Positions 1 to 38,345 of a DNA stretch of 64,000 bases are shown in pieces. Numbering within the stretch: position 1 is the stretch's first letter; every line of letters starts with the position of its first letter. The translations under genes were made by a program, and so were the position numbers. The stretch covers positions 284 to 64,283 of the forward strand of contig DASPXX010000293.1 in assembly GCA_035637095.1 (NCBI GenBank), written 5' to 3'. The notes beneath the pieces were generated by a model, which did not search any database, had not been told where the DNA came from, and worked only from the letters and a program-made list of their open reading frames with translations. This DNA comes from Thermoanaerobaculia bacterium. GTDB lineage: Bacteria > Acidobacteriota > Thermoanaerobaculia > Multivoradales > UBA5704.

Positions 1-42
1 GGGCCGGATGGGAAGTCAGTGCGCCTAGGTTATTTCGGGACG
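1..42. repeat. Left copy of a 42-bp imperfect direct repeat (inside the oxidoreductase gene 3' end)
   Basis: gggccggatgggaaGtcagtgcgcctaGgttatttcgggacG at 1-42 versus gggccggatgggaaTtcagtgcgcctaCgttatttcgggacA at 2789-2830, 39/42 identical. Flanking sequence is unrelated beyond the repeat. Confidence 0.7.
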
Positions 43-179
43 AAGCGATGACCCGGGCGATCGCGCAGCACGGCATGCGCCCGGTGGTCGACCGCACCTT
101 CGCCTTCGAGGAAGCCCCGGCCGCCTGCGAGCTGATGGCGGCGAGCGGACATTTCGGGAAGATCTGCGTGCGGGTGTAG
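1..179 (+). CDS. C-terminal end of a zinc-type alcohol dehydrogenase / NADPH:quinone oxidoreductase (MDR family) protein; 5' part lies outside the window
   Basis: Frame 3 reads ...RDEAMTRAIAQHGMRPVVDRTFAFEEAPAACELMAASGHFGKICVRV* with stop TAG at 177-179. The tail matches MDR-family oxidoreductase C-termini (..P.ID..F.LEEA..A...L.SG.H.GKI.L.V). No start codon is present in the window. Confidence 0.5.
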   Translation, partial: AGWEVSAPRLFRDEAMTRAIAQHGMRPVVDRTFAFEEAPAACELMAASGHFGKICVRV

Positions 180-220
180 GCCCCGTTGACCGTACATAGG
201 GTTTGTGCGACGCTCTATGC

Positions 221-427
221 ATGAGAACGACGCTCGAGATCGACCGTGATCTTCTCGAAGAAGCGGTGCGGGTCACCGGTGCACCCACAAAATCGGTCGC
301 CGTTCGGCTGGGCCTGAAAGCGCTCGTGGATGAGGCTGCCCGCCAGCGGTTGGCGGCGCTCCGTGGAAAGGTGCCCGAGGTCGAGGTCGCTTCGCGGCGG
401 CGCCCGATTCGGGATGACGCCCAGTGA
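221..427 (+). CDS. vapB: VapB-type (type II TA) antitoxin
   Basis: ORF 203..427 (TTG). The likely ATG at 221 gives MRTTLEIDRDLLEEAVRVTGAPTKSVAVRLGLKALVDEAARQRLAALRGK..., the typical N-terminus of VapB-family antitoxins paired with PIN toxins. Its stop TGA overlaps the GTG start of the downstream PIN gene (caGTGAtc). Confidence 0.65.
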   Translation: MRTTLEIDRDLLEEAVRVTGAPTKSVAVRLGLKALVDEAARQRLAALRGKVPEVEVASRRRPIRDDAQ

Positions 428-798
428 TCCTGGTCGACACGTCGGTCTAGGTCGATTTCTTTCGCGGTACAGAACGCGCGGCGGATCTCGCCGAGCATCT
501 CGAATCCAATCTGGTCTTGCTTCATCCCTGGGTTCTCGGGGAGCTTGTCTTGGGCGGCCTCGGCCCGCGACGGAAATCGGTGATCGCGGACCTGAAGCGG
601 CTTCCTGCCGCGCCACTTGTCCCAGATGAAGAGGTGCTGGAGCTGATTCTGGTGCGCCAGCTCAGCGGACGGGGTGTCGGCTGGGTCGACGTTCACCTGC
701 TGGCGACTGCACTGGTGGCTGAATGCGGGCTCTGGACGTTCGATGGAGACCTTGGAGCAGTGGCTCGAGATCTCGGTGTGGTCTCGGTGCAGGGGTAG
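424..798 (+). pseudogene. vapC: VapC (PIN-domain) toxin gene interrupted by an in-frame amber codon at codon 9
   Basis: GTG at 424 overlaps the vapB stop. Translation is V-I-L-V-D-T-S-V-TAG(448-450)-VDFFRGTERAADLAEHLESNLVLLHPWVLGELVLGG... in the same frame as ORF 517..798 (...VDVHLLATALVAECGLWTFDGDL). The canonical PIN N-terminus is ILVDTSVWIDFFRG, so TGG (Trp) appears to have mutated to TAG. Confidence 0.6.
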
Positions 799-966
799 CC
801 GTGGCTCTCGGGTGATCTCGCGGTAACCAGTGAGACCTGATGCCTTGGAAGTGCAAAGCGGCAAGGTTCGGTGGCACAGCAAAGACCACGTGAACACGCT
901 GCTGGGGCTGTTCGTCCCTGCATTGACTACGCCCGTAGAGCTACTGCATTGGGAAGGAGATATACA

Positions 967-1149
967 ATGAAACCCGATCCCGCAATCGAGGAGATCCGCG
1001 CCGTACGCCACCGGATCTCAGAGGAGTTCGGTCACGACACCAAAGCCCTCCTCGACCACTATCGCGAGTTGGAGAAGCTCCATCCCAACAGAGTCCTGCG
1101 ACCGCACGCCTCGGGTCCGTCCAAGGCTCCAACTACAGCCGGAAAGTGA
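967..1149 (+). CDS. Small hypothetical protein (60 aa)
   Basis: Internal ATG of ORF 871..1149 preceded by a strong SD (ggaaGGAGAtatacaATG). Product is MKPDPAIEEIRAVRHRISEEFGHDTKALLDHYRELEKLHPNRV..., helical and protein-like. No confident family assignment. Confidence 0.45.
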   Translation: MKPDPAIEEIRAVRHRISEEFGHDTKALLDHYRELEKLHPNRVLRPHASGPSKAPTTAGK

Positions 1150-1212
1150 CGCAGGCCGAAGAACTGGCGCCTCCGAGCTGCCGTTCCCCGATTCCCCTGG
1201 GAGCCAACAGCC

Positions 1213-1581
1213 TCAGACAACCGATACAGATACGACTCCCGACGCGTGCCCCTCGGCCTTCGGCCGGATGATGATCTCGACGTCGCGATCGAGGAGAGTG
1301 ACGAAACGCAGCAGCCGTTCGGAGGAGAACCGGTTCAGCTTGTAGTGCTTGAGCTCCGAGACATGGGGCTGCGGAATGCCGAACAGCTCTGCCGCGCGAG
1401 CCTGCGTCAAATGGCGGTCCGCAACCAGCTCGTTGAGCCGCATCGCGAGCTGCACGCGCAGCTTCCGCTCGTCGGCATCCGGGAAGCCAAGATCTACCAG
1501 CACGTCACCGCTTCCCGGGTCGACCGTCTCCGTCCGGCCGAAAAGCTTGCGCCTCTGGAGGTCGCCTGGTCGGCCGACCAT
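1213..1581 (-). CDS. HigA-like XRE-family HTH antitoxin
   Basis: Contains ...DVLVDLGFPDADERKLRVQLAMRLNELVADRHLTQARAAELFGIPQPHVSELKHYKLNRFSSERLLRFVTLLDRDVEIIIRP. The HTH followed by a ..RLLRF..L..DVEI.IRP tail is characteristic of HigA-type antitoxins found with RelE/ParE-superfamily toxins. Confidence 0.6.
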   Translation of the reverse strand: MVGRPGDLQRRKLFGRTETVDPGSGDVLVDLGFPDADERKLRVQLAMRLNELVADRHLTQARAAELFGIPQPHVSELKHYKLNRFSSERLLRFVTLLDRDVEIIIRPKAEGHASGVVSVSVV

Positions 1582-1589
1582 GCCGCTCG

Positions 1590-1844
1590 TCAGGATAGAA
1601 CCTCTCTCCTCATCTCTTCGAGGGTCAAGCTCTTGCCCATCTCAATCTCCGCCCGCGCTTTTTCGATGAGCTCTTGAAACACGCCGCTGGTACTCAAGGC
1701 CCAGGACTCAGGATCAACATCCTTCAGCGACACGATGGCAGCAACAGGCTTGCCGGCTGCTGTAAGCACCAGGATCTCATCGTCCAACTCGTCGGCATAT
1801 GACGACAGCGGGCGGGAGGCTGTCGCAAGCTCGATCTTTTTCAT
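1590..1844 (-). CDS. Phd/YefM-family antitoxin
   Basis: MKKIELATASRPLSSYADELDDEILVLTAAGKPVAAIVSLKDVDPESWALSTSGVFQELIEKARAEIEMGKSLTLEEM. The ..vvvtr.GkPvAvlvs.. core is typical of Phd/YefM antitoxins. Its start ATG sits in ttATGAaaaag, which overlaps the reconstructed stop of the upstream relE-like gene. Confidence 0.6.
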   Translation of the reverse strand: MKKIELATASRPLSSYADELDDEILVLTAAGKPVAAIVSLKDVDPESWALSTSGVFQELIEKARAEIEMGKSLTLEEMRREVLS

Positions 1845-2136
1845 AACTGTACCTCCTCGCCGTCAATCCACACGCTGTTCCCTTCTTCTGCCCGACAGCC
1901 AAGACGCGGACTTCCTTCTCTTGCGTCTCGACATCATAGAATACTCTCAGATCACCAACGCGCAGCTCCCACGGTGCGAGAGGGTTGGGCCGCAGGAGCT
2001 TGCGGTTCCTCGTTTCGACCGTAGGCTCATGCGATAACTGCTGCTCGATCGTGTCGAGAAGCAGTGCACGCTGCCGAGCCTCGAGCTGGCGGAGTTGCCT
2101 CTTCACAGACTCGGCAAAGCGAATTCTGAAGGCCAT
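1777..2136 (-). pseudogene. RelE/ParE-family toxin gene with a -1 frameshift near its 3' end
   Basis: MAFRIRFAESVKRQLRQL...LRPNPLAPWELRVGDLRVFYDVETQEKEVRVLAVGQKKG is a RelE/ParE toxin fold. The listed ORF then runs on as TACGLTARRYSYEK.. into the phd gene. Restoring one A in the run ggaa(a)cagc gives ..KKGNSVWIDGEEVQL* with TGA overlapping the phd ATG (ATGA), the expected ancestral arrangement. Confidence 0.5.
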
Positions 2137-2239
2137 AGCGTTTTCAAAGAGTATCTAGTCGTCTCTCGCCATGGCCCCGGAGCTCAAGTAGGCGACCGCC
2201 GCAGGACGGTCAATCATGGAGCACGGCGCGGCCTTCTCA

Positions 2240-2317
2240 CCTGGATCAAAGCCATCTTCCATGTCCCATCCGCCCGCCGGGGGAGTCCAAGATCGCCCCC
2301 TTCCCCGTCGCCGGCAT
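2240..2317. repeat. About 78-bp segment duplicated at 2865..2935 (about 90% identity)
   Basis: cacctggatcaaagccatcttccatgtcccatccgcccgccgggggagtccaagatcgcccccttccccgtcgcc versus aacctggaccaaggccaccttccacgtcccggtccgtccgccgggggagtccaagatcgtccccttccccgtcgcc. Both translate to ..LDQ(S/G)HLP...RPPGESKI(A/V)PFPVA.., so they are fragments of one decayed gene family. Confidence 0.6.
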
Positions 2318-2512
2318 CGCTTCGGGTCCCTCGGCATCTTCCGGGGGGATACCAAAGGACCGGACCGTGGGCTGAGCCAGCCTCGCCTCTCCCTGGTCCT
2401 CCTCGCCTGCGGTCGGTTCCTGAACACCTCTGCGCGCCGCATCGACTGCCAAGTCCTGGCCGAAGAGCTGGCGCCTCTGGAGGTCCCACCTGCCACGAGC
2501 CCACCGGCTCAC
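2246..2512 (-). pseudogene. Degenerate partial copy of the HigA-like antitoxin gene 5' region
   Basis: ORF 2246..2512 (-) begins ..GRWDLQRRQLFGQ.. and contains ..SFGIPPEDAE... This parallels GRPGDLQRRKLFGR and DLGFPDADE of the intact gene at 1213..1581. Nucleotide similarity of about 25 bp (gagctggcgcctctggaggtc) between 1544-1565 and 2464-2490. Confidence 0.3.
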
Positions 2513-2538
2513 TCGCCTTGTCGTAGTAGACTTAGGGC

Positions 2539-2739
2539 ATGAGCCAGATCCTCCTCGACATCTCGGAAGACTCCCTTCTCGCCCTCAGGGTCTCCGCCGA
2601 GGAGGCTGGAGAGCAACTGCGCATGGCCGCCGCGATCAAGCTTTTCGAGCTCGGCCGGCTCTCCTCAGGAGCCGCGGCAGAGCCGGCTCGAAAAGACCTC
2701 TCGCGGCCCTTCAGGCCGCGGGGTAGATCGGACTCCTAG
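2539..2739 (+). CDS. UPF0175-family antitoxin-like protein, apparently 3'-truncated
   Basis: MSQILLDISEDSLLALRVSAEEAGEQLRMAAAIKLFELGRLSSGAAAEP.. is the typical start of UPF0175 proteins (partners of PIN-like DUF3368 toxins). The usual C-terminal part and a downstream toxin are missing. The ORF ends just before the repeated oxidoreductase-gene fragment at 2789. Confidence 0.45.
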   Translation: MSQILLDISEDSLLALRVSAEEAGEQLRMAAAIKLFELGRLSSGAAAEPARKDLSRPFRPRGRSDS

Positions 2740-2788
2740 GACCCAGGGCGTCGGCCTTCGGCCTCGGCCCTGGGCTATGTTCTCCCGG

Positions 2789-2830
2789 CCCCTTGGGCCG
2801 GATGGGAATTCAGTGCGCCTACGTTATTTC
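2789..2830. repeat. Right copy of the 42-bp imperfect direct repeat
   Basis: See the left copy. Lies between the truncated UPF0175 gene and a decayed ORF remnant. Confidence 0.7.
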
Positions 2831-2839
2831 GGGACAGGC

Positions 2840-3230
2840 CCTTACGGGAGCGTGATGGTCGAGAACCTGGACCAAGGCCACCTTCCACGTCCCGGTCCGT
2901 CCGCCGGGGGAGTCCAAGATCGTCCCCTTCCCCGTCGCCATCTACAAGCATCCCCACGCCAACGGGTTCGTCCTCATCCAACCTGCCCTCGCAGGCCAAG
3001 ATCATCGACCTGGACATGCAGAACGCCTGTAAGGACGCGGCGGAGAAGTTCGCCGCCCTGGACCTCAACTGGTGGACCTGCATCCCCGTAGAGGTCATCG
3101 GCCCGGACCTCCAAGAGATGCGGAACATCCACCTCCGCCTGAAGCCAACTCCCTGGATCGCCAGCGATTGGGGGAGGGGGGACCGGTGAACCGGCTCCTC
3201 CAGTTTTGTCAGCGCGGGTACGAGCTTTGA
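2840..3230 (+). pseudogene. Decayed remnant of an unknown gene (needs at least 2 frameshifts); second copy of the 78-bp duplicated segment
   Basis: Protein-like stretches in shifting frames: MVENLDQ.., then ATFHVPVRPPGESKIVPFPVAIYKHPHANGFVLIQPALAGQ, then AKIIDLDMQNACKDAAEKFAALDLNWWTCIPVEVIGPDLQEMRNIHLRLKPTPWIASDWGRG. No single intact ORF. Confidence 0.25.
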
Positions 3231-3315
3231 ACCCTTGGGGGCCGGCGTCCTGCCGGCCCCTTCACCCTTCACCAAGCGTTCAACCGCATTTGACGCAAAC
3301 CGTCCTCAACCGCCA

Positions 3316-4080
3316 TCAGTAAGGATCTGGGTCATAATCCCCCGGGTCGTAGTCAGCGTTAGCCCATTCCTCTTGCTGGGCCTCATACGCGGCTTGCCAC
3401 CGTCCCTGCATCACCTCGCGTAAACACTCGGGGCGGACGATCAGCAAAGGTAGTATGCGATCCATAATCTCGGCAAATTTGAACAGGTCGAACTCAAAAC
3501 CCTCTTCGAGACTATGAGTGGTGCCGTCTTTTTTCACGGAGTACCGGAACGTATACGACCCTGGGTCAACAGCATCGAACTCGCGGACAATTTGTTCAAA
3601 GTCAGATTGCGTCCGAAGCTCGGGTTCGTCAAAATTCCAAACCTCAGGATCACCCGCTGCCCATGTGTTGAAGATTCGAGAGACTTCTTTGAAGAGGGGC
3701 TTCAGATCGTGCTTCATCAACTCCTTGACAGAGATGGGCACCTCACCTTCATCGCGCAAGAGAACCCCTCCTGCGAACACGATTGCCTTGAGACTTAGCT
3801 CAAATGCTTGGCGATACATAAAAACAATAGGGTATGCCTGGAATTCATTGCCGGGATACAGGCCGCGAGTGGCCTTTAGAACTTCGATCCGCTCCTGTGC
3901 GACCAAATGATAACTTCTGGCAATTCGCTCCAGATCTTGGATAGGGTCTCTGTCCCAATTGAGCATGACACGCCCAGGATTCCTCCAACCTCCTTCCGGA
4001 CGCTGAAAGAGAACGCGCTTTGGTTTCGCCTTCACGCTGCTTGGCGCCGAGTTGAGTCCGCCTAGCCCTCTTTTAACCAT
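3316..4080 (-). CDS. Hypothetical protein (255 aa) with an acidic Tyr/Asp/Pro-rich tail
   Basis: Internal ATG of ORF 3316..4470 with SD (GGAGGtcggcattgcATG). MVKRGLGGLNSAPSSVKAKPKRVLFQRPEGGW...YPIVFMYRQAFELSLKAIVFAGGVLL...SYTFRYSVKKDGTTHSLEEGFEFDLFKFAEIMDRILPLL... ending DYDPGDYDPDPY. The upstream 390 nt of the listed ORF is Gly/Arg-rich low complexity and probably not translated. No family recognised. Confidence 0.45.
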   Translation of the reverse strand: MVKRGLGGLNSAPSSVKAKPKRVLFQRPEGGWRNPGRVMLNWDRDPIQDLERIARSYHLVAQERIEVLKATRGLYPGNEFQAYPIVFMYRQAFELSLKAIVFAGGVLLRDEGEVPISVKELMKHDLKPLFKEVSRIFNTWAAGDPEVWNFDEPELRTQSDFEQIVREFDAVDPGSYTFRYSVKKDGTTHSLEEGFEFDLFKFAEIMDRILPLLIVRPECLREVMQGRWQAAYEAQQEEWANADYDPGDYDPDPY

Positions 4081-4519
4081 GCAATGCCGACCTCCTCCCT
4101 GTATCGATGCCTTACTGATCTGGTGATCGGAACGACTGCCACCGTTCCGTCGCCACTCTGGCGCGCCCTGGCATTTTAGCAGGCGCCGGCTCTCCTGATC
4201 TTCTTCCCCCGCCCCGAACCACCAAAAAAGGACAGCCGGCCAGTCGGACATCTCCGGCCCCCTCTCGTCGCCGGCTCGCCTCGTCCCCCGCCTATCGACG
4301 TTCGTCCCTGCCACCCCGCCCCCACCCGCCCCGTGAGGCCCCTGTGCGGCCCCAGGTCGTGGCGCCGTGGCTACGGCCAGCCAACGGCCGCCTCTAAGTT
4401 TCTTTGCTGGAGTGCTTTGCATGCTTTCCAGGGGCGGCACCGCCCCACCGACACCGTGATTTTCAGTCAAATGCCCTGCTGTGGTCCGCGGGGTGACGGC
4501 GCTTCGAGTCGTTGAAACG

Positions 4520-4550
4520 CCCCGGGGGCGAGAGAGCCTCGCCCCCGGGG
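4520..4550 (-). terminator. GC-rich hairpin downstream of the small minus-strand ORF (terminator-like)
   Basis: Perfect 13-bp inverted repeat cccgggggcgag-agagc-ctcgcccccggg. On the minus strand it follows the ORF stop (about 4569) within 20 nt and is followed by CGUUUC. Confidence 0.35.
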
Positions 4551-4568
4551 AAGAGAGCTACAGGGACG

Positions 4569-4868
4569 TCAACCCTTCTTCTTTTCTGCCGCAGCCTTCG
4601 CAGCCTTCAACGCCTCGAGCTCCGTTTCCAGCTTGACGATTTTCTCGTCCGGCGTCAGGCGGCGCCGCGGCTTCGGCAGGCGCGGCTTGACGCCGAAGGC
4701 CAGCAACGCCATGCTGTCGACCCCGAAGACGCTCTGCACGCCGGCGGCCAGCTTGTTGCGGAGGCTGCGCCCGCGGCGCCGGATCTCGCGGCTCCGCCGG
4801 TTCGTCTCGCGCAGCTCACTGCGTTGGACGTCCTGGATGCTCTGGATCTCCTCGCCCTCGACGATCAC
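4569..4868 (-). CDS. Small basic hypothetical protein (99 aa from GTG, or 47 aa from the internal ATG near 4712)
   Basis: ..RRRLTPDEKIVKLETELEALKAAKAAAEKKKG has a coiled-coil/lysine-rich C-terminus and is Arg-rich upstream. Flanked downstream by a hairpin and upstream by the iteron-like array. No clear SD. Family unknown. Confidence 0.3.
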   Translation of the reverse strand: MIVEGEEIQSIQDVQRSELRETNRRSREIRRRGRSLRNKLAAGVQSVFGVDSMALLAFGVKPRLPKPRRRLTPDEKIVKLETELEALKAAKAAAEKKKG

Positions 4869-4919
4869 CTCTTCGAGCTCTCATGGGGGAGGCCCGGCAA
4901 CCGCGGCAGCTCGGCGTGC

Positions 4920-5107
4920 ACGGTCCGAGATAGCGGCAAACCGGCCGAGATAGCCGCTAACGGGACGAGTTAGCCACTAACTCGACGAGTTAACGGCTAT
5001 CTCGGCCGAGATAACGGTTAACCGGGCCGGTTAGCGGTAAACCGGACGAGTTAACGGCTATTCGCGGCCGTTTAGCCGTTAGCGGGCCGGGATAGCGGTT
5101 GAAAACG
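4920..5107. repeat. Iteron-like array: 9 tandem degenerate units of about 20 bp
   Basis: ccgagatagcggcaaaccgg / ccgagatagccgctaacggg / acgagttagccactaactcg / acgagttaacggctatctcgg / ccgagataacggttaaccggg / ccggttagcggtaaaccgg / acgagttaacggctattcgcgg / ccgtttagccgttagcggg / ccgggatagcggttgaaaacgg. Consensus about cCGAGtTArCGGyTAaCCGG. Several units are internally palindromic, for example GAGTTAGccaCTAACTC and GGTTAACC. Confidence 0.7.
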
Positions 5108-5162
5108 GCGCCCCCTCCCCCGTGGAGCGGGAGGGGCACCACCGCCCGCTCCCCGGAGCTCC
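5106..5162 (-). terminator. Two overlapping GC hairpins downstream of the BNR-protein gene; the first is followed by a U-tract on the minus strand
   Basis: Plus-strand cccctccc-ccgtggagc-gggagggg and ggagcggg-aggggcaccaccg-cccgctcc are mutually exclusive stems. On the minus strand the first hairpin is followed by gcgccGUUUUC and lies about 45-100 nt after the stop of the 1110-aa gene. Confidence 0.45.
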
Positions 5163-5207: not shown

Positions 5208-8200
5208 TCAGGGTGTGGGGCCTAACAGCTCGATCTTCGCCCCTTCCACCAGCTTGCGGAACGCCGGCACGTCCTCGGCCCAGACGCGGTCGACGCCGGC
5301 CAGGGCGGTTTTGGCCGTGGCCTCGGCGCGGTCGAGCTGGGAGAGCTGGGTGGCGTTCGGCGGGTCCCAGGAGGATTCGAGGGAGCGGCCGGCGTCCTGG
5401 ATCTGGGTGAAGGCGGTTCCGCTGTCGTCCACGATGCCCTTGGTGCCGGGGGGCACGAAGAGCGTCTTCTCCGCGGCGTCGAGCTTCGCCCTCAGACCCT
5501 TCGCGGCCTTCTTCAGATCGCGGTTGGGGTCTTCGCCTTCCTCGCTCTTGTCTTTCCGCGCCTTGTCCGCGGCGTCGAGCTTCTTCTGGACCAGGTCGAG
5601 GTCGGCGCGGGCTGCCGCGATCCGGTCGGTCGCCGCGCCCAGAGAGTCCTGGACGGTGCGGATACGCTCGAAGGCGGCCTCGCGCGCCTGCCAGTCCCCG
5701 GCGGTGTTCTTGGTGAGCGGAGACGGCACCACCTGGGCGGTCCCCTCCGCCACGTGGTCCTTGTACTTCACCTTCACCCGGTAGGTGCCGGGCGGCACCT
5801 TCGGACCGCTCCGTGGCTCACGCTGCCGCCCCCGGCTGTCGGTGGGCGGCGCCACGAAGGCGTCGCGGCCGAGGTCCCAGGTGGCGCGGTTGAAGCCGAG
5901 CTGCGCCGGACCGTCCATCTTGCGGACCAGCTTGCCGGAGGCGTCCTCGATCCGGATCTCCACGCGTGGGCCTTTGTCCTTGTCCTTCCCCTTCGCTCCG
6001 GTGTCCGCCGTGGCCTCGGGGTCCTCCTTGAGCGTCTCGCCCGGCTTGGCGGGTCCCTTCGCGGCGGTGGCCCGCGCCGCAGCCCGCTCCTCCTCCTTGC
6101 GCGCGCGCTCCGCCTCCTCCTCGGGGAGCGGCAGGCCGGGGAGATTCAAGGAATAGGTGAGCTCGACGCCGTACGGCCGGTTCTCGCCGTGGAAGTCGCC
6201 GGCGCCGGCCCGCGTGTTGCCGTTCCCGATCTCGCGGCGGTCGAGGCGGCCGGCCGTCGACGGGTACAGGTGGAGCGGCTCGCGCAGCACCTCCGGCGTC
6301 AGATGGCGGAGCGGCGTGATGTCGTCCACGATGTAGAGGCCCCGACCGTGGGTGGCGATCACCAGGTCGTTCTCGCGCGGATGGATCGCCAGGTCGGCCA
6401 CAGCCGTGGTGGGCAGGCCGTGCTTCCAGCGCATCCACCGCCTGCCGCCGTCGGTCGACACGTAGAGGCCGAATTCCGTGCCCAGGAAGAGGAGGTCGCG
6501 GTCCACCGGGTCCTGCTCGATGGACAGGGCCCAGCCGTCGACGTCCCTGGTCGCCAGGCTCTTCCAGGTCTTCCCCCAGTCGTCGGTGCGGAAGACGTAG
6601 GGCGCCCAGTCCTCGCGCCGGTGGTTGTCCATCACCAGGAAGGCGCTCGCGGCGTCGAAGCGCGACGGGCGGATGTGCGGCACCCAGGTGTTCGCCGGCA
6701 CGCCCGGGATGTTCTTCTCGACGCTCGTCCAGGTCTTGCCGCCGTCCCGCGTCACGTGCACGCGCCCGTCGTCCGTGCCCACCCAGATCACGCCTCGCTC
6801 GATGGGACTCGGGGCGATGGCGAGGATGGTGGTGTAGCTCTCGGCCGCGGTGACGTCCGGCGTCAGGCCGCCGCTCTCCGACTGCTTCTGCCAGTCGGAG
6901 TTGTCGGTGGTCAGGTCCGGGCTCGCGATCGTCCATGTGTCGCCGCGGTCGGTGGACTTGTGGACGTACTGGCTGCCGTAGTAGAGGGTGCCCGGCTCGA
7001 ACGGATCGAGGGCGAGCCCCGAGCTCCAGTTGAAGCGGAGCGGCTCGTGCCCGTCGCCCGGCTTCGGCTCCGGCGGCTGGATCTCCTTGATCTCGCCGGT
7101 GTGCAGGTTCCAGCGCAAGAGCGCGCCCCCCTGGGACATCGAATACCCGATCTGGGAGTCCTGCGGATCGGGAGCCGCGTCGAAGCCGTCGCCGCCGCCG
7201 ATCCGCATCCAGTGCTGGTTGCGGATGCCACCCTCGTCGTCCTGGACCTCCGAAGGGCCGCGCCAGGTGCCGTTGTCCTGCAGGCCGCCGTAGAGGTTGT
7301 AGGGGACCTCCATGTCGACGTTCACGTGGTAGTACTGGCCGAGCGGCAGGTTCGGCGGGAAGTACCAGGTCCTGCCGCGGTCGCGGGTGATCGCCAGGCC
7401 GCCGTCGTCGCCCGCGATCAGATGGCTCGGATCGCGCGGATCGATCCACATCGTGTGGAAGTCGCCGTGAGTCTTCGTGTCGATCTCGTCGAAGCTCTTG
7501 CCGCTGTCGTTCGAGACCGAGAGGCGCGTCGCGATGTTGTAGACCCGGTTGGGCCAGGCGGGATCGACCCGGATCTCCGAATAGTAGAAGGGGCGGTTCG
7601 ACGTCCGCGGATCGTCGTTGGCGGTCTTCCAGGTGCGCCCGCCGTCCTCGGAGCGCACCAGCGCGCTCTTCGTGGCCTCGACGAGGGCGTAGACGATCTC
7701 CGGGTTGGAGCGCGAGATGGCGAGACCGATCCGGCCGAGGTCGCCGGAGGGCAGCCCGTCGTCCTCGGTCAGCCGCTTCCAGGTCTCCCCGCCGTCATCG
7801 GTCACGTGGAGACCGGAGCCGGGGCCGCCCGAGCGGAAGACCCAGGGCCGGCGGCGGTGCTCCCAGAGCGCGGCAAAGAGCTTGTTCGGATTGGCGGGGT
7901 CCATCGCCAGGTCGGCCGCGCCGGTCCGCTCGTCGACGTAGAGAACCTTGCGCCAGGTGCGTCCGCCGTCGGTCGTCTTGAACACGCCGCGGTCGGCGTT
8001 CTCCCCCCACAGCTGGCCGAGGGCCGCCACCCAGGCGACGTCCGGGTTGGTGGGATGGAGGATGATGCGCGAGATGCGCTCGGTCTTTTCGAGGCCCAGG
8101 TGCTTCCAGGTGCGCCCGCCGTCGAGCGAGCGGTAGACGCCCCAGCCGACCGAGACGCTGTTGCGCGGGTTGTCCTCGCCGGTGCCCACCCAGACGACGT

Positions 8201-11291: not shown

Positions 11292-11876
11292 ATGCCTCTC
11301 GCCGAGGCGCTCCAGGTCACTCTGGAGGTGGTTCGAGTGCTGGAAACCCTCGAAATCCCCTATCTCCTTGGTGGTTCCCTGACCAGCTCCCTCCACGGGA
11401 TTCCCCGCACCACCCAGGATGCCGACCTGGTCGCCGACCTCCAACTCTCGCATGTGGCGCCTCTGGTGGAGCGCCTGAGCGGCGCCTTCTACATCGATGA
11501 CAAGCGCGCCCGGGATGCCATCCGGCGGCGCGCCTCCTTCAACCTCATTCATCTCGCCACCATGACCAAGGTGGACATTTTTATTCTGAAGGACGACCCG
11601 CTCGCGCGGCGCGAGATGGAGCGCCGCCAGTGGATTGCGCTTCCCGGTGGCGAGGGCGCTTCCCTGTGGGTCGCCACCGCCGAGGACATCGTCATCCAGA
11701 AGCTCGCCTGGTTCGTTCTGGGCGGGGAGGAGTCGGAGCGGCAGTGGAACGACGTTCAGGGCGTCTTGAAGGTTCAGCGGGGCAAGTTGGACCTCGAAGA
11801 CCTCCGGCGATCGGCAGCCGAGGCAGGGGTGGAAGACCTGTTGGAGAGGGCTCTGTCCGAAGCCGGCGGAAGCTGA
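11292..11876 (+). CDS. Minimal nucleotidyltransferase-fold protein (194 aa)
   Basis: ..IPYLLGGSLTSSLHGIPRTTQDADLVADL.. carries the GS-x(9-13)-DxD signature of the Pol-beta-like nucleotidyltransferase superfamily. Tightly coupled to the upstream 87-aa gene. Confidence 0.7.
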   Translation: MPLAEALQVTLEVVRVLETLEIPYLLGGSLTSSLHGIPRTTQDADLVADLQLSHVAPLVERLSGAFYIDDKRARDAIRRRASFNLIHLATMTKVDIFILKDDPLARREMERRQWIALPGGEGASLWVATAEDIVIQKLAWFVLGGEESERQWNDVQGVLKVQRGKLDLEDLRRSAAEAGVEDLLERALSEAGGS

Positions 11877-11897: not shown

Positions 11898-12316
11898 GCC
11901 CTCTCGGGTGCCTCATCCGACCTCTCGGACGCGCCATCCGACGTCTCGGGTGGACCATCCGACCCCTCGGATGAGGCATCCGACCTTTCGGGTGCACCAC
12001 CCGAGGCCTCGAACGCGCCATCCGACCCCTCGAATGCGCCATCCGACGCCTCGTCTGTGACATTCGAGGCCTCGGATGCGACATCCGACCTCTCGAGCGT
12101 GACATCCGACCTCTCGGATGTGACATCCGAACCCTCGGATGCGCCATCCGACCTCTCGGATACGCCATCCGACGCCTCGGATGAGCCATCCGACGCCTCG
12201 AACGCGCCATCCGACGCCTCGAACGCGCCATCCGACCTCTCGGACGGGCCATCCGACGCCTCGGATGAGGCAACCGACGTCTCGGATGAGCCGTTCGACC
12301 TCTCGCCTGGCGGGAC
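11898..12316. repeat. Minisatellite: about 20 tandem copies of a degenerate 21-bp (7-codon) unit
   Basis: Unit is about gacgcctcggatgcgccatcc (gacctctcggacgcgccatcc, gacgtctcgggtggaccatcc, gacccctcggatgaggcatcc ...). It starts 22 nt after the nucleotidyltransferase stop. One frame is open from 11877 to 12386 encoding (A/G)PSD(L/A/P)S(D/N) heptads. Other frames give HPTPRTR or RSDGAFEAS repeats. Confidence 0.8.
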
Positions 12317-27404: not shown

Positions 27405-29045
27405 CTAAGAGCTCTGGGCCTTAGACTCCGCAATCACCCAGCGTGCCCAGCGCCGTCGGCCCCGCAACGCAACCCGAGCCTCTTTGCGCATTTCTTCCAG
27501 AAGCCGCTGAATACCGCTCTCTGATTCGGAAGGCAGCACTTGGCGAAGCTCGGACAGCGGCGAGCCGGCTTCCCCCTGATCGCGAAGGTGCTGGAGCAGC
27601 AACGCCTTGTTCGTCTCGCGATCCAACCCCTTCTTGCGAGTGTAGACGCCCTTGGCCCCGAGAGCCGCATAGAGCCGCCGCGAAAGCAGATAGCGGGTCC
27701 CCTTGCCGCGCCCAAGAGATTCCACCGCTCCTGCAGCAATCAATCCCGGCAGCCGCGCCTTCAGGTGCTCTGGCAATGGCTGTTCCCGGTACAGGCAATG
27801 CAAGGCAAGGAAGTCGTAGGTGGAAAAGAAACTGGTCATCTCTTCGGTCAGCCTCTCCAGATAGCGCACGAAGGCGGGGTCGCGAACCATGCCCTCAAGG
27901 GTCAGGCGCACTTCGTGACTGGACGTGCCTGCGAGGCTGGGCAACAGCTTTCCTTGCCGGAGAGCGCTCTCGAACATCAAGTTCATGCCCTGTCCAGAGC
28001 GCTCGATCAGCCCGCACTTGGCCAAGGCCTCGGCCAGGCGACGATTGCGGGGATTCTGCTGGTCGAGGATGTTTTCGGGGGTGATGCCCGGCGGCAGGCC
28101 GCCCGGGCTCACGATTTCCAGGCGCTGGGGGAACTGGCGGACGAACACCGAGCCACCCAGCCTGTAGTCCCGATGCGCTACCGCATTCAGCAAGGCTTCG
28201 CGCACCGCGACCTCGTCGAAAGTGGGCAACTCCAGACGGAACAGTCCCTCCTGATAGCTCTGGCGGTTATTGCGCAAATTGATCTTCTGCCACAGCATGT
28301 CCTGGCAGAGCAAGAATCCTTCGCGGAGCTCTATGCGATCCGCCGCCGGCCCCGATGCCTCGGACGAGCGATATTCAAAGACGATCTCGGCTTGAGCCAA
28401 CCGCCGTCCGAGGGCGGCATGCGTGCCGAAGAGAATCAGCGCTGCGTATGTAGGCTGGCCATCCAGGAGCAATTCGGCATTGGCCAGCGTGTCCGCGTCG
28501 CTCCAGGACAGCCGCCGCTGGTCGTGCATTTTCGTGGCCCAGCGGGTGCGGAACGCGGAGATCGCTTCCATCGACAGATCGGCCAGGGTCGCCTGGGGGC
28601 ATGGTTCGGCGGAAAAGTCCGGCCCCACTTCGGCAAAGATCGTCCGCAAGTCGGCAGCGGTCATGACTGCGAGATCATCGCCCGCCCGTTTGAGATAGCG
28701 GCCTCCGATCTGCCATGCCGTGCCCGGCAAGCGGCCGGGTACCTTCACCACCAGCACGCGCCCTTCGGGCGTCCGCACCTCTTCGATCGGGATGCGATGC
28801 GACAGACGCTCGTGCAAGCCTGCCTCGGTACGACCCGGTTCGGCAAAGGCGGAGGTGCCGACGATACGCCGAGGCCGCTTATCGGTCACGCCGAGGATGA
28901 TCGTGCCGCCCCCCTCATTGGCGAGTGCGACACAGTATTCAACCAGTTTCTCGAATTGATAGCTCTGTTTGGCCTCTTTAAATTCGAGGTTCCTGCCCTC
29001 GGGCTCGTCGAGCCACTGTTGGAGTTGGTCGTGGGTCGTCGGCAT
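27405..29045 (-). CDS. AlbA_2 (Schlafen-like) + HATPase_c-type ATP-binding protein, putative transcriptional regulator/defense-associated ATPase
   Basis: From the internal ATG: MPTTHDQLQQWLDEPEGRNLEFKEAKQSYQFEKLVEYCVALANEGGGTIILGVTDKRPRRIVGT.. (AlbA_2/Schlafen divergent AAA-like domain). C-terminal half ..LNAVAHRDYRLGGSVFVRQFPQRLEIVSPGGLPPGIT.. (ATPase-like). Divergently transcribed from jetA. Confidence 0.7.
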   Translation of the reverse strand: MPTTHDQLQQWLDEPEGRNLEFKEAKQSYQFEKLVEYCVALANEGGGTIILGVTDKRPRRIVGTSAFAEPGRTEAGLHERLSHRIPIEEVRTPEGRVLVVKVPGRLPGTAWQIGGRYLKRAGDDLAVMTAADLRTIFAEVGPDFSAEPCPQATLADLSMEAISAFRTRWATKMHDQRRLSWSDADTLANAELLLDGQPTYAALILFGTHAALGRRLAQAEIVFEYRSSEASGPAADRIELREGFLLCQDMLWQKINLRNNRQSYQEGLFRLELPTFDEVAVREALLNAVAHRDYRLGGSVFVRQFPQRLEIVSPGGLPPGITPENILDQQNPRNRRLAEALAKCGLIERSGQGMNLMFESALRQGKLLPSLAGTSSHEVRLTLEGMVRDPAFVRYLERLTEEMTSFFSTYDFLALHCLYREQPLPEHLKARLPGLIAAGAVESLGRGKGTRYLLSRRLYAALGAKGVYTRKKGLDRETNKALLLQHLRDQGEAGSPLSELRQVLPSESESGIQRLLEEMRKEARVALRGRRRWARWVIAESKAQSS

Positions 29046-29118
29046 GACGGCGATCTCTTCTCTGAGGTACCACCGCCGATGATACGATACCTCGCGCGAA
29101 CGACGCGAGGTTGCCGCA

Positions 29119-30717
29119 TTGCAAGAAAGAACCACCCCACGCGAACCTGATGCCGTTTCGACGGCCCGGACCGCCGACACCGGTGGCCGGCTGACGCTGT
29201 TCTCTTACACGGTCGAGTCGCTCGCCCCGCTCTACCGTGCGGTCATGCGCCTGTTCCTGGAGGCCAAGGGGCGCTACCGGATCCAGCTGCGGCCGGATGA
29301 GGTCGCCGCCGAGCTCCGCCGCGCGAGCCTCCTGGGGGACCTCCCCGAGGGGAGCGTCGACCGCGCCCTGGACCAGCTCGTCGACTGGGGGAACCTGCGG
29401 CGCAGCCACGACACCGGGCGGGTCGCCACCCTGGAGGACTTCCGCCGCCGTCACTTCATCTATCAGCTGACCGCCGCGGGCGAGGCCGCCGAGCGGGCGG
29501 TCGGCGAGGTCCTGGCCGCCCTGGAGAGGAGCGGCTCGCTGCAGCGGGTGATGCTGGGGACCATTCTGCGCAACCTCCTGGAGATCCGCGGCGAGCTGGA
29601 GAGCGGCGAGCCGAAGCCGGAGCGGTTGTTCGAGCTGCTGTTCAACGTGACGGAGCAGTTCCGCGCCCTGACCGAGAACGCGAGCACCTTCCTCGCCCGG
29701 CTCCACGAGGCGATCGACCAGGGGGAGGTGCGGACCGAGACATTCCTTATCTATAAGCAGGCGGTCCTGGAGTACCTGGAGCAGTTCCTCGGCGAGCTGT
29801 CGGAGATCTCTCCCCGTATCACCCGGGAGGTGCAGGAGATCGAGGCGGCCGGCAGCGAGCGGCTGGTGACCCTGGCGGCCCGCGCCGATGCGGCCCCGAC
29901 GCCGCTCGGCCTCCAGGACCCGGCCGAGGGGCTGCGCCGCAAGTGGCGGGGGATCGCCGCCTGGTTCGTGGGCGACGGCCGGGAGCGCGCCACCGTGGAG
30001 CATCTGCGCTCCGCGGCGCGCGGCGCGATCAACCGCATCCTCCTGGTGCTCGAACGGCTGCACGAGAAACGCTTCCGCCGCTTCAGCCGCGCCGCCGACC
30101 TGCTGCGCTTGGCCGGCTGGTTCGACGGTCTCGACCGGGAGCCCGGGGGTGGGGAGCGCGCCCACCGCCTCTTCCAGGCCCTCTTCGGCCTCTTCGGCGC
30201 CCGGCACCTCGGTGGGCTCGAGGAGGATCCGGATCTGGTGCGGCCCGGCATGAGCTGGTGGGAGGCCCCGCCGGTGCCGATCGCTCCCGTCCTGCGCAAC
30301 ACCGGCCGCGGCAATTTCACCGGCCGGGCGGCGCAGATCGTCGACCACTCGCGGGTGAAGCAGCTCCTCGCCGAGCGCCATCGCCGCGACTGGGAGGCGC
30401 AAGCGGCGGCGCTGGCCCGTTTCGCCGGCCGCGGTCCCCTGGCGCTCGCCGGTCTGCCGCCGCTCTCGCCGGATGAGTTCGCTCTCCTCCTCTCGCTCCT
30501 CGACCAGCTGCTCGCGGCTCCGCCGGCGCCGGACGGCCGGCGCGCGACCCGCAGCCGCGACGGCCGCCTGCGCCTCGCGCTCGGTCCGGCGGCTCCCGGG
30601 GCGCTCGCCAGGATCGAGACAGCGGCCGGCCGGCTCGTCCTCCCGGCGTTCACCCTGGAGGTCGAGACCGCCGGGGAGACGGGGGCGCGGCTCCTCGCCC
30701 GCGGAGGTGCGGCTTGA
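29119..30717 (+). CDS. jetA: JetA-like protein of the TIGR02677/DUF2397 type (first gene of the four-gene SMC-Toprim cassette)
   Basis: 532 aa. ..TLFSYTVESLAPLYRAVMRLFLEAKGRYRIQLRPDEV.. Stop overlaps the next gene start (gcTTGAcc). Size, position and composition match the first gene of the TIGR02677-02678-02680-02679 cassette. Confidence 0.6.
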   Translation: MQERTTPREPDAVSTARTADTGGRLTLFSYTVESLAPLYRAVMRLFLEAKGRYRIQLRPDEVAAELRRASLLGDLPEGSVDRALDQLVDWGNLRRSHDTGRVATLEDFRRRHFIYQLTAAGEAAERAVGEVLAALERSGSLQRVMLGTILRNLLEIRGELESGEPKPERLFELLFNVTEQFRALTENASTFLARLHEAIDQGEVRTETFLIYKQAVLEYLEQFLGELSEISPRITREVQEIEAAGSERLVTLAARADAAPTPLGLQDPAEGLRRKWRGIAAWFVGDGRERATVEHLRSAARGAINRILLVLERLHEKRFRRFSRAADLLRLAGWFDGLDREPGGGERAHRLFQALFGLFGARHLGGLEEDPDLVRPGMSWWEAPPVPIAPVLRNTGRGNFTGRAAQIVDHSRVKQLLAERHRRDWEAQAAALARFAGRGPLALAGLPPLSPDEFALLLSLLDQLLAAPPAPDGRRATRSRDGRLRLALGPAAPGALARIETAAGRLVLPAFTLEVETAGETGARLLARGGAA

Positions 30718-31880
30718 CCACCCTCCTCGACGAAGAGCAGCGCCGGGCCGTCCGTCTCCTCCTCGCCCACCCGTTCGTCAGCGACGCGCGGCCCGATCCC
30801 GAGACCTTCGCTCTCGTCCGCCGCCACGCCCGGGAGCTCCAGCGCTGGTTTGCCGAGCAGCTCGGCTACCGCCTGGTGGTGGACACCGAATTCGCCCGCC
30901 TCCACAAACGGCCGGCTCCCGGTGCGCGCCTCCGCCCGCTCCGCACGCAGAGCAACCTGCCGTTCGATCCGCGCCGCTACGCGCTCCTCTGCCTGGTGCT
31001 CGCCGCCCTGGAGCGCGTCGAGGTGCAGACGGTCCTCTCCGAGCTGGCGGGGCAGGTGGCTCTCCTCGCCGCCTCGGAGGAGGCGGTGCGGGGCTTCGAC
31101 CTGGAGAGCTTCGCCGAGCGGCAGGCGTTCGTCGACGTGATCCGCTGGCTGGTGGAGCAGGGGGTCCTCAGCCTGGCGGACGGCGAGGACACTGCCTTCG
31201 TCGAGGGCCGCGGCGACGCCCTGTACGACCTCCACAGCCGTCGCCTCTCGCAGCTTCTCTCGGCGCCGGTCCCGGCCGCGGCGCCGGAGTCTCTGGAATC
31301 AACGGGCCTCGACGTCTATCCGGAGACCGAGGAGGGGGCGAACCGGCGGGTGCGGCACCGCTTGATGCGCCGGCTGGTCGAAGAGCCTGTCCTTTATATA
31401 GAGGACCTGGAGGAGGCGGAGCGCAGCTACCTCACCTCCCAGCGCCACTATCTGCTCGGCCAGGTCTCCGGCCAGACCGGCCTCGCCGTCGAGGTGCGGC
31501 GGGAGGGGCTCGCGGCGGTCGATCCGGCGGGCCGGTTGAGCGACCTCGCCTTTCCCGCCACCGGGACGCTCTCCCACGCCTCCCTCCTGCTCGCCGGGTA
31601 CCTGGCGGAGACGGCCCGCGCGGCTCCCGATCCCGCCGCCCCGGTCTCCCACGAGGACCTCCGCACCTGCATGGAGGGTCTCCTGGAGCGCTACGGCCAC
31701 CTGTGGAGCAAGCGCTACCGGGACGATCCGGCCGGCGTGGGCAGGCTCCTGGCCGATTCCCTGGAGCTGCTGGAGCAGATGGGGTTGCTTTCCCGCGGGG
31801 GTGGCGGAGTCGTGGCATTGCCGGCAATCGCGCGATTCGGTGTGACGGAGCCGGCCAGCAAGGACGAGACCGATGGATGA
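30714..31880 (+). CDS. jetB: JetB-like protein of the TIGR02678/DUF2398 type
   Basis: 388 aa, TTG start overlapping the jetA stop. Its stop is 8 nt inside the jetC start (ccgATGgATGAgg). Second gene of the cassette. Confidence 0.55.
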   Translation: MTTLLDEEQRRAVRLLLAHPFVSDARPDPETFALVRRHARELQRWFAEQLGYRLVVDTEFARLHKRPAPGARLRPLRTQSNLPFDPRRYALLCLVLAALERVEVQTVLSELAGQVALLAASEEAVRGFDLESFAERQAFVDVIRWLVEQGVLSLADGEDTAFVEGRGDALYDLHSRRLSQLLSAPVPAAAPESLESTGLDVYPETEEGANRRVRHRLMRRLVEEPVLYIEDLEEAERSYLTSQRHYLLGQVSGQTGLAVEVRREGLAAVDPAGRLSDLAFPATGTLSHASLLLAGYLAETARAAPDPAAPVSHEDLRTCMEGLLERYGHLWSKRYRDDPAGVGRLLADSLELLEQMGLLSRGGGGVVALPAIARFGVTEPASKDETDG

Positions 31881-37261: not shown

Positions 37262-37500
37262 CGGACGGGCCATCTGTTCCGAGATATGGGCCACCTGCTC
37301 CGCGGAACGAGACCCCGTTCCGCGGTACGGGTCACCTGCTCCGAGGTACAGGCCATCTGTTCCGCGGAGCGAGCCGCCTGTTCCGTGGAGCGAGCTGTCC
37401 ATTCCGCGGAGCGAGCCTCCTGTTCCACCGGGCGAAGCCCCGCTCCGAGGAACGAGCCTCCCGTTCCGCGGAACGGATCACCCGCTCCATGGAACGGGAA
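37262..37500. repeat. Field of about 11 degenerate tandem repeats with a palindromic TCCGCGGA core
   Basis: ctgttccgagatatgg / ctgctccgcggaacgag / cgttccgcggtacggg / ctgctccgaggtacagg / ctgttccgcggagcgag / ctgttccgtggagcgag / cattccgcggagcgag / ctgttccaccgggcgaag / cgctccgaggaacgag / ccgttccgcggaacgg / cgctccatggaacggg. Period about 21-24 bp. Lies immediately downstream of jetD. A perfect 16-bp palindrome CGACCGGTACCGGTCG precedes it at about 37226. Confidence 0.65.
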
Positions 37501-38255: not shown

Positions 38256-38345
38256 TGGCGGAGGGGGTGGGATTCGAACCCACGGGCCGCGTGAACGACC
38301 GGCGGTTTTCAAGACCGCTGCTTTAGACCGCTCAGCCACCCCTCC
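38256..38345 (-). tRNA. tRNA-Ser (anticodon UGA), 90 nt with a long variable arm and encoded CCA
   Basis: Reverse complement GGAGGGGTGGCTGAGCGGTCTAAAGCAGCGGTCTTGAAAACCGCCGGTCGTTCACGCGGCCCGTGGGTTCGAATCCCACCCCCTCCGCCA. 7-bp acceptor stem GGAGGGG/CCCCTCC, anticodon loop CTTGAAA (TGA), T-arm GTGGG-TTCGAAT-CCCAC, long variable arm, discriminator G plus CCA. Confidence 0.85.

Follow-up and report, generated by a model that had tools for sequence, protein, structure and literature searches.

Why does a row of palindromic repeats stand in front of a gene for a small basic protein in a genome of the Thermoanaerobaculia? The locus lies at positions 4,520 to 5,162 of a 64,000-nucleotide stretch of DNA (GenBank assembly GCA_035637095.1, contig DASPXX010000293.1), the whole of which we call the window. 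An earlier note on this DNA had likened the repeats to plasmid or phage iterons, to a partition centromere or to an autoregulatory operator. We find instead that they belong to a previously undescribed cassette, of which Thermoanaerobaculia and related Acidobacteriota carry several copies on each chromosome, and that the copy in the window has decayed. The array is a candidate DNA-level platform for the assembly of a multimeric protein and a cis-element of this conserved cassette, a reading to which we give a probability of about 0.5. We found no description of the cassette or of its protein family in the literature on tandem repeats in Thermoanaerobaculia or Acidobacteria.

Two calls by Tandem Repeats Finder (TRF) cover the array: one at 4925-5060 with a period of 20, 6.8 copies, 73% matches and a score of 107, the other at 4984-5099 with a period of 61. 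Each unit consists of a 13-bp dyad, GWTAR-N3-YTAWC, and a GC-rich linker, and is 20-21 bp long overall. With at most one mismatch allowed, the dyad pattern GWTARNNNYTAWC has seven in-register matches, at 4929, 4949, 4969, 4989, 5010, 5030 and 5050, with spacings of 20, 20, 20, 21, 20 and 20 bp (4929-5062). The units are contiguous, and the linkers between the dyads are 7-8 bp long, GC-rich and near-constant. Two degenerate units, recognized by reading at 5071-5083 and 5091-5103, bring the total to nine over ~181 bp. As delimited by TRF, the dyad pattern and unit-by-unit conservation, the array spans 4925-5105 on the minus strand, at the upstream (left) end of the cassette, and the nine units described in the earlier note, several of them as internally palindromic, are borne out. 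Three adjacent units (2-4, counted on the plus strand) form a higher-order, near-perfect palindrome of 67 nt at 4942-5008, which is centred on the perfect dyad CGAGTTAGCCACTAACTCG and was identified from arm pairing (32-nt arms, 88% complementary) and DNA folding. As single-stranded DNA the array folds at -49.6 kcal/mol, with a z-score of -6.45 relative to shuffles. In the other ~64 kb of the window the dyad pattern has three one-mismatch matches, against a mean of 1.75 matches per window in shuffled sequence, and 0 of 100 shuffles reached 10 matches. The array is thus not a repeat dispersed through the window.

The features on either side of the array are also as previously described. A hairpin 3' of a BNR/sortilin-type gene (5120-5134 pairing with 5142-5156, 87% complementary) lies to the left. 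To the right is an open reading frame (ORF) at 4569-4868 on the minus strand, directly followed by a perfect 13-bp hairpin (4520-4532 with 4538-4550). This terminator-like hairpin of the cassette gene (4520-4550, minus strand), just past the stop codon, is kept in all copies and shows compensatory changes. The ORF was called from a GTG at 4868 and has 99 codons. Its GC content at codon positions 1, 2 and 3 (0.68, 0.44 and 0.90, compared with 0.67, 0.50 and 0.94 in the BNR gene) is of the coding type, as in the real genes of this 69% GC window. We identified more than 120 homologues of the ORF, nearly all from metagenome-assembled genomes (MAGs) of Thermoanaerobaculia and nearly all 135-139 amino acids (aa) long. 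The window ORF corresponds to residues 40-138 of this 138-aa family, and similarity extends four codons further upstream (ELEE) to an in-frame TGA. The window copy is not a complete gene but a 5'-truncated remnant (codons ~36-138) at 4569-4880 on the minus strand, as indicated by the lengths of the homologues, the junction described below and the lack of a promoter-like site.

The nature of the truncation is apparent from locus L001, which is probably the same locus in a related strain, as its right flank is 93% identical to window positions 46-477. There, an array 98.9% identical to that of the window is followed by ~430 bp and then by a full gene of 138 codons. Relative to L001, the window is missing ~490 bp comprising a second array (array 2), the promoter, the leader and codons 1-36. 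By reading of the alignments, the deletion junction falls between 4880 and 4881. The array-proximal flank (4881-4924, minus strand) ends at this junction in the in-frame TGA (4881-4883) and overlaps the imperfect direct repeat CCGAGCTGCCGCGGTTG, which recurs in the gene at ~codons 22-30. Window positions 4881-4912 match both L001 5587-5618 and L001 6076-6107, a double alignment that points to deletion between two short imperfect repeats (CCGrGCTGCCGCrGTTG). We also considered whether the segment after the array derives from an ancient duplication of the 5' part of the gene, and rejected this, as the similarity amounts to a short imperfect repeat of ~17-30 nt that is seen in one clade and could not be traced in the others.

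Similar losses have occurred in other copies. L073 and L072 carry the same type of deletion with a slightly different crossover point, in addition to a frameshift or indels in the remaining ORF. The same region was deleted independently in another paralogue (L018 and L075), and L019 and L027 are truncated at the 5' end at other points. It may be that expression of the gene is costly in some backgrounds, which could explain the repeated loss of the promoter and 5' end. No promoter-like site was detected upstream of the window ORF, and the only purine-rich stretch before it abuts the GTG with zero spacing. Thus, the window ORF is most likely a promoterless, 5'-truncated pseudogene, and the array lies directly before it because of the deletion; where the cassette is intact, 170-515 bp separate the end of the array from the ATG, and array 2 lies between the array and the promoter. 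We suggest that the '99-aa gene' be flagged as a 5'-truncated pseudogene in the annotation of the window, and that the array be annotated as the retained cis-element of a decayed cassette, neither an origin nor a partition site.

Comparison of the sequences upstream of the gene in 13 genome and 54 metagenome loci revealed the anatomy of the intact cassette, which measures ~1.45 kb. Its parts follow in a constant order: array 1 (the array discussed so far), array 2 in many loci, promoter, leader, gene, hairpin, a transfer RNA (tRNA)-like pseudogene and a further ~250 bp that end in the T-run TTTTTTGGTGGTTCGGGG. Array 1 has 3-16 units with a period of 20-21 bp, most of them dyad-symmetric. Array 2 consists of 5-7 direct repeats of CCGGTRAA, spaced by 10-11 bp and immediately upstream of the TTGACA -35 element (for example, at ~700-770 in L009, ~3735-3800 in L013 and ~5620-5710 in L001). 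Unlike array 1, it is similar across all protein clades; it is missing from the window. A promoter-like pattern (TTGACA-N15-19-TAnnnT) is present in 33 of 50 loci, the promoter of the cassette in its idealised form being TTGACA-N17-TAnnnT, and the gene is preceded by a strong GGAG ribosome-binding site. In most loci array 1 begins directly behind the stop codon of an unrelated gene transcribed in the same direction, and in L001 and L004 it abuts the 5' ends of divergent genes. The window copy has the left-end array, the terminator hairpin, the remnant of the tRNA-like element and the right-end T-run (~4222), and lacks the full-length 135-139-aa gene, promoter, leader and array 2. No further copies of the family were found in the window.

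The leader is ~200 nt long and, in 28 of 45 clade leaders, contains a short upstream ORF (uORF) with an invariant (A/S/V)RGPP. This motif is the only invariant part of the uORFs, which include MCCASAARGPPSGE... and MKSGYVARGPP followed at once by a stop codon. Examples of leaders are found ~200 nt upstream of the ATG at 4001 in L007 and at 5911-5997 in L001; in the window the uORF is gone, as it lay inside the deleted segment. RGPP is reported to be a robust ribosome-arrest core that is not relieved by EF-P (PMC12992588). The cassette leader would then be an arrest-peptide leader ahead of a gene unrelated to protein localisation.

Downstream of the gene terminator, a tRNA-Phe(GAA)-like pseudogene is conserved in several paralogues. 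The Rfam tRNA model aligns end to end with L007 4492-4560 at 20.2 bits, below the gathering score of 29, and ARAGORN made no tRNA call at this element. It may be either the scar of a former integration site or a tRNA-like element with a function. In the window a degenerate remnant is recognizable by alignment at 4423-4494 on the minus strand, with the anticodon-loop-like CTGAAAATC retained and the T-arm decayed. It is followed by the non-coding conserved 3' part of the cassette (4200-4422, minus strand), which forms the right boundary and ends in the T-run TTTTTTGGTGGTTCGGGG, seen as an A-run at 4222-4227 on the plus strand. RNAalifold predicted 57 pairs in this 3' conserved region, only three of them with compensatory changes, and gave a positive covariation term, so that a structured RNA beyond the tRNA-like part is unsupported. 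Two other identities for the region were rejected: a sigma-54 promoter on the basis of spacing, and a permuted tmRNA given no calls by ARAGORN or Rfam.

A profile search of 1.8 billion representative proteins retrieved 453 members of the 138-aa family, all unnamed, listed in databases as 'hypothetical' and without domains. The family is marked by a strongly basic character, the invariant motif RRGRSxRN, the linker KPRLPKPRRR and a tail rich in Lys and Ala. An AlphaFold2 model based on a 24-sequence alignment (pLDDT 87) consists of helices at residues 3-22, 28-87, 92-97 and 112-137 and contains no strand, and the ribbon-helix-helix, helix-turn-helix or ParG-like fold for which the earlier note suggested a check is not borne out by any structural or family match. 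Nothing significant was found for the protein in Pfam, NCBIfam, PHROGs, PADLOC or, by sequence, the Protein Data Bank (PDB), and no homologue was detected in 72,556 plasmids, 50,697 phages or IMG/VR.

The link between array and gene is consistent across the family. An array of 20-21-bp period adjoins the family gene in all 13 genome loci and, among the 33 metagenome loci with a full-length gene and no less than 700 bp of sequence before it, lies upstream in 32. The array is kept beside the gene across protein divergence down to ~50% identity. The sequence of the unit tracks the protein clade, the unit types being GTTAGCSGCTAAC, GTGTAAGCCTTAAAAC, GTTCACGGTGAAC, GATCACCGTGATC and ATAGCCGCTATCC, and one clade has a period of 21 rather than 20. 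A single MAG contains seven paralogues, 47-81% identical to one another, with different units. Four of five distant members examined have a 20-21-bp array ~100-150 bp downstream of the gene, past the terminator; in the corresponding place the fifth (L020) bears larger palindromic repeats. The association is therefore of long standing and does not require an array at the promoter. The linkage and the change of unit with clade thus make it reasonable to see the array as a cis-element tied to the small protein. In the window itself the ORF is truncated, and its adjacency to the array is the product of a deletion.

Several comparisons indicate moderate constraint on the array. Its units are conserved position by position among the clade-A copies. 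Between the window and L001, array identity is 98.9%, compared with 92.3% at fourfold-degenerate sites (Fisher p = 0.02), and between L001 and L009 the values are 92.5% and 78.7% (Fisher p = 0.012). Dyad-core columns are less variable than linker columns (25/117 versus 22/59, p = 0.03). The array is more likely to act at the level of DNA than of RNA, given that the non-Watson-Crick dyad positions (30 GT, 46 AC and 120 other) show no G.T bias on either strand, that the promoter lies downstream of the array in intact copies, and that no RNA family was recognized. When the window and 13 loci related to it were searched against Rfam with gathering as well as E-value cut-offs, no family was assigned to the array, and only generic miRNA-precursor long-hairpin models matched the palindrome.

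Given the anatomy, linkage and constraint presented above, we propose that array 1 of intact cassettes may provide a series of dyads that recur every two helical turns, and so face the same side of the DNA, on which a multimeric protein complex would assemble. The assembled complex may then act on the adjacent promoter or mark the locus. Since distant members carry the array downstream of the gene, a distance-tolerant role as a nucleation site or landmark, as for ParB-type sites, appears more fitting than that of a simple operator. As each paralogue has a unit sequence of its own, the small basic protein of the cassette is the most economical candidate for the binder; we regard this assignment as less likely than not. 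In the window, the ~490-bp deletion fused array 1 to the promoterless, 5'-truncated ORF and left the array as an orphaned site beside a dead gene, which could be bound at most in trans by the product of an intact paralogue.

A number of observations weigh against this proposal. The protein has no recognizable DNA-binding fold, being all-helical with best Foldseek matches (PDB, BFVD) at E > 1. Its most basic segment, RRGRSxRN, does not vary between clades with different arrays and so cannot alone set array specificity. The arrays of L010 and L011 are direct rather than dyad repeats, with 4-5 of 7 dyad positions matched. Copy number ranges from ~3 to 16 units between near-identical proteins, a spread that slippage without constraint would be expected to produce. 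The position of the array past the terminator in distant members rules out a simple operator role there. The constraint on the array is modest and missing in some pairs (p = 1 for the window with L007 and with L004), and gene conversion between copies could contribute to it or mimic it. Finally, the window contains two further arrays of 21-bp units that resemble this one and lie near no family gene.

The first of these additional arrays, at 11903-12305, has 19 units of 21 bp with the dyad TCGGATG-N3-CATCCGA. An AbiEii-like nucleotidyltransferase gene (11292-11876) has its stop codon 26 bp before the array, and part of a gene with the metallo-beta-lactamase fold comes after it; no copy of the 138-aa family is nearby. 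The other, at 37265-37497, has ~11 units of 21 bp with TTCCGCGGAACG-type dyads. It begins 50 bp after the last gene of a four-gene operon (29119-37214, plus strand) encoding DUF2397, DUF2398, an SbcC-Rad50-like ATPase and DUF3323+DUF2399, a set that we take to be the domains of the Wadjet (JetABCD) anti-plasmid system. The third array is also ~750 bp from a tRNA-Ser gene (anticodon TGA; 38256-38345, minus strand), the sole tRNA gene in the window. A Schlafen/AlbA_2-HATPase_c_4 gene (27405-29180, minus strand) lies upstream of the Wadjet-like operon. The intergenic DNA of this genome may therefore quite generally contain arrays that each have a private unit.

Extending the proposal, we speculate that Thermoanaerobaculia chromosomes carry orthogonal 'address tag' pairs, each composed of a private phased array and a small basic helical protein that recognizes only its own array. 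Several independent nucleoprotein landmarks per chromosome would then form a new nucleoid-organising or locus-marking system, with expression gated by the RGPP ribosome-arrest uORF, and the orphan array of the window would still be read in trans. We regard this extension as rather doubtful. If the pairing of array and protein is real, the locus would represent an undescribed chromosomal cassette that joins a site array, a family without a known fold, an RGPP leader and a tRNA-like element. Several specificities would have diversified within single genomes of a barely studied phylum. Such a cassette could offer a naturally evolved collection of orthogonal pairs of DNA and protein, as well as a new nucleoid or locus-marking protein. 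The decay of the window copy lowers the interest of this single locus, and it is the family-level pattern of co-diversifying arrays, RGPP uORF and tRNA-like element that merits follow-up.

The limits of the cassette are sharply defined. The copies become similar abruptly with the first unit of the array (window ~5110), and their similarity stops close to the T-run (~4200). At the left boundary (5106-5110) similarity to all other copies ends, and the genes beyond differ from copy to copy. The genes flanking the cassette vary in general, and no neighbouring protein is conserved across 15 loci. A 255-aa ORF at 3316-4083 (minus strand), which the earlier note had tentatively joined to the same element, lies past the conserved right boundary in a patch of 51% GC within the 69% GC window, and none of the other cassette copies has it as a neighbour. 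Searches of Pfam, NCBIfam, PHROGs and PADLOC gave no match to it. It does not belong to the cassette and looks like DNA acquired separately.

At still lower coordinates, positions 1-3300 of the window contain a cluster of small toxin-antitoxin-like ORFs and gene fragments. A 41-nt repeat occurs there at 1-41 and 2795-2835 (95% identical) and again at L004 6618-6658, and a 44-nt repeat occurs at 2269-2312 and 2896-2939. In L004, L008, L009, L013, L015 and L016, parts of window 1-3300 are found again at a distance of 1-2.5 kb downstream of the cassette. In L001, a direct repeat of ~70 bp (~5283-5350 and ~7221-7290, ~97% identical) matches the 5' end of a PMT glycosyltransferase gene and brackets the cassette together with a VapB-like gene and an alcohol-dehydrogenase fragment, which suggests an insertion or duplication event.

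Other explanations of the array have to be set against its proposed role as an assembly platform. The array may be bound by a host factor encoded elsewhere, such as a ParB/KorB-like or other dimeric helix-turn-helix protein, and serve as an upstream activating, silencing or insulating element, in which case the 138-aa protein would not be the binder. This would be in keeping with the absence of a recognizable DNA-binding fold in that protein and with the resemblance of the 13-bp dyads to classic dimer operators. The inner 11 bp of the clade-A unit (TTAGCSGCTAA) match what we take to be the KorB operator core, TTTAGCSGCTAAA, and the clade-C unit GTTCAC-G-GTGAAC presumably resembles parS; both likenesses are leads. 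The start of the array right after an unrelated co-directional gene in most loci would suit an insulator, and the half-site CGGYNAA recurs in array 2 of all clades. A single factor would be expected to keep the units alike, however, and those of the seven paralogues in one genome are strongly different. None of the Pfam-called neighbour genes around six copies is ParB-like. A host factor is the main alternative to the cassette's own protein as binder, and we consider it an unlikely explanation overall.

Alternatively, the array may be a functionless tandem repeat, micro-satellite-like and grown from a palindromic seed, that hitch-hikes with the cassette and owes its conservation to recent copying or gene conversion. 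The variable copy number between near-identical proteins, the arrays elsewhere in the window that accompany no family gene and the weak contrasts between array and synonymous sites in several pairs would all be accounted for, and the 99.5% identity of the window and L073 arrays, which lie in different genomic contexts, is compatible with recent duplication or conversion. A neutral repeat would not be expected to persist beside the gene down to ~50% protein identity, and in distant members as well. Moreover, the units are conserved by position and not homogenised within the array, the dyad cores vary less than the linkers, and the period is 20-21 bp, or two helical turns, in all clades. These features make a functionless array quite unlikely.

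The sharp boundaries of the cassette, and the presence of closely related copies between unrelated flanking genes, might also indicate a small non-autonomous mobile element of ~1.45 kb, moved or integrated in trans, of which the array would be the end bound by a recombinase or transposase. The tRNA-like sequence inside the cassette, the 70-bp direct repeat that brackets the L001 cassette and a few genes, the richness in toxin-antitoxin genes and gene fragments of the DNA downstream of several copies and the location of one distant copy beside a tyrosine recombinase gene are in line with such mobility. The compared cassette ends, on the other hand, show no convincing terminal inverted repeats or consistent target duplications, and there is no integrase or transposase within 10 kb of two copies on long contigs. 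The paralogues within a genome are old (47-81% identity), and the tRNA-like element is located ~250 bp inside the right boundary instead of at it. We therefore find a mobile-element end decidedly improbable.

It is very improbable that the array acts as RNA, as a run of hairpins resembling the repeat RNA of a type III antitoxin, a protein sponge or a 3'-end stabiliser. Each unit is able to form a short hairpin and the array folds far better than shuffles; in distant members it follows the terminator of the gene, and all three arrays of the window follow the 3' ends of genes. The mismatches in the dyads nevertheless lack a G.U bias on either strand, and most are unable to pair. In intact clade copies the promoter is downstream of the array, which in L001 and L004 abuts divergent genes. 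The protein has no ToxN/AbiQ-like or defence-family match, and there is no Rfam family for the array.

The iterons or partition centromere of an integrated plasmid or phage that the earlier note envisaged, with the small ORF encoding a Rep-, ParR- or ParG-like binder, agree with the 20-21-bp period, the internal dyads and the adjoining gene for a small basic protein, but are scarcely credible, as the Pfam-called neighbour genes around six copies include no Rep, ParA, ParM or TubZ, no ribbon-helix-helix or winged-helix fold is predicted, the window has no DnaA-box-like sequence and, with GC no lower than 0.615 around the array, no AT-rich unwinding region, the plasmid, phage and IMG/VR collections contain no homologue, and there are up to seven diverged chromosomal copies per genome.

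We compared the cassette with known systems that contain short repeats. Its units are contiguous and without unique spacers, in contrast to those of a CRISPR array. Like REP/BIME elements, it has short palindromic units in intergenic DNA, in a position often past the 3' ends of genes. REP/BIME elements belong to one dispersed sequence family, whereas each array described here has a private unit that is absent elsewhere in the window apart from the three one-mismatch matches. Type III toxin-antitoxin systems (ToxIN, CptIN and TenpIN) also have tandem repeats beside a small gene, and 5'-inactivated copies are frequent. Their repeats are ~34-45 nt long and not 20-21 nt, and their parts follow in the order promoter, array, terminator and toxin gene, whereas in the cassette a promoter-like site separates array and gene. 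The cassette protein is helical rather than a ToxN-type endoribonuclease and matches nothing in PADLOC or Pfam.

Plasmid iterons (pSC101, R6K, RK2 and F oriS) share the period of ~20-22 bp, the head-to-tail copies and the adjoining gene. The units of the cassette differ in being mostly dyads and not purely direct repeats, those of iteron origins measuring 17-22 bp at a spacing of ~22 bp. No Rep initiator, typically a winged-helix protein of ~30-40 kDa, was found among the Pfam-called neighbours, the adjacent gene encoding the 138-aa all-helical protein without a Pfam, NCBIfam or PDB match, and the DnaA box TTWTNCACA has 0 matches in the window. The sites of the ParB family (parS, KorB OB and F sopC) are palindromes of 13-16 bp that act at a distance, and sopC consists of tandem repeats that bear palindromes. 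The repeat unit is 43 bp there and 20-21 bp in the cassette, and neither the cassette nor its surroundings encode a ParB/KorB-type protein with a helix-turn-helix and a CTPase.

The nearest analogue in working logic is the type II/Ib partition centromere (R1 parC-ParR, pSK41 parC and TP228 parH-ParG). The parC of pSK41 consists of four 20-bp repeats. In these systems helix-phased tandem repeats are placed immediately upstream of the promoter of an operon for a small basic protein, and the array is private to that protein. The intact cassette resembles them in outline, with array 2 intervening between its array 1 and the promoter. The cassette departs from them in that it has no gene for a partner NTPase (none appears in the gene tables, and no neighbour is conserved across the 15 loci), in that its protein is predicted to be all-helical and to lack the strand of a ribbon-helix-helix, and in that it is chromosomal, with up to seven diverged copies per genome and with the array downstream of the gene in distant members. 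Overall, the cassette is best filed as a variation on the theme of a tandem array of putative binding sites linked to a small protein gene.

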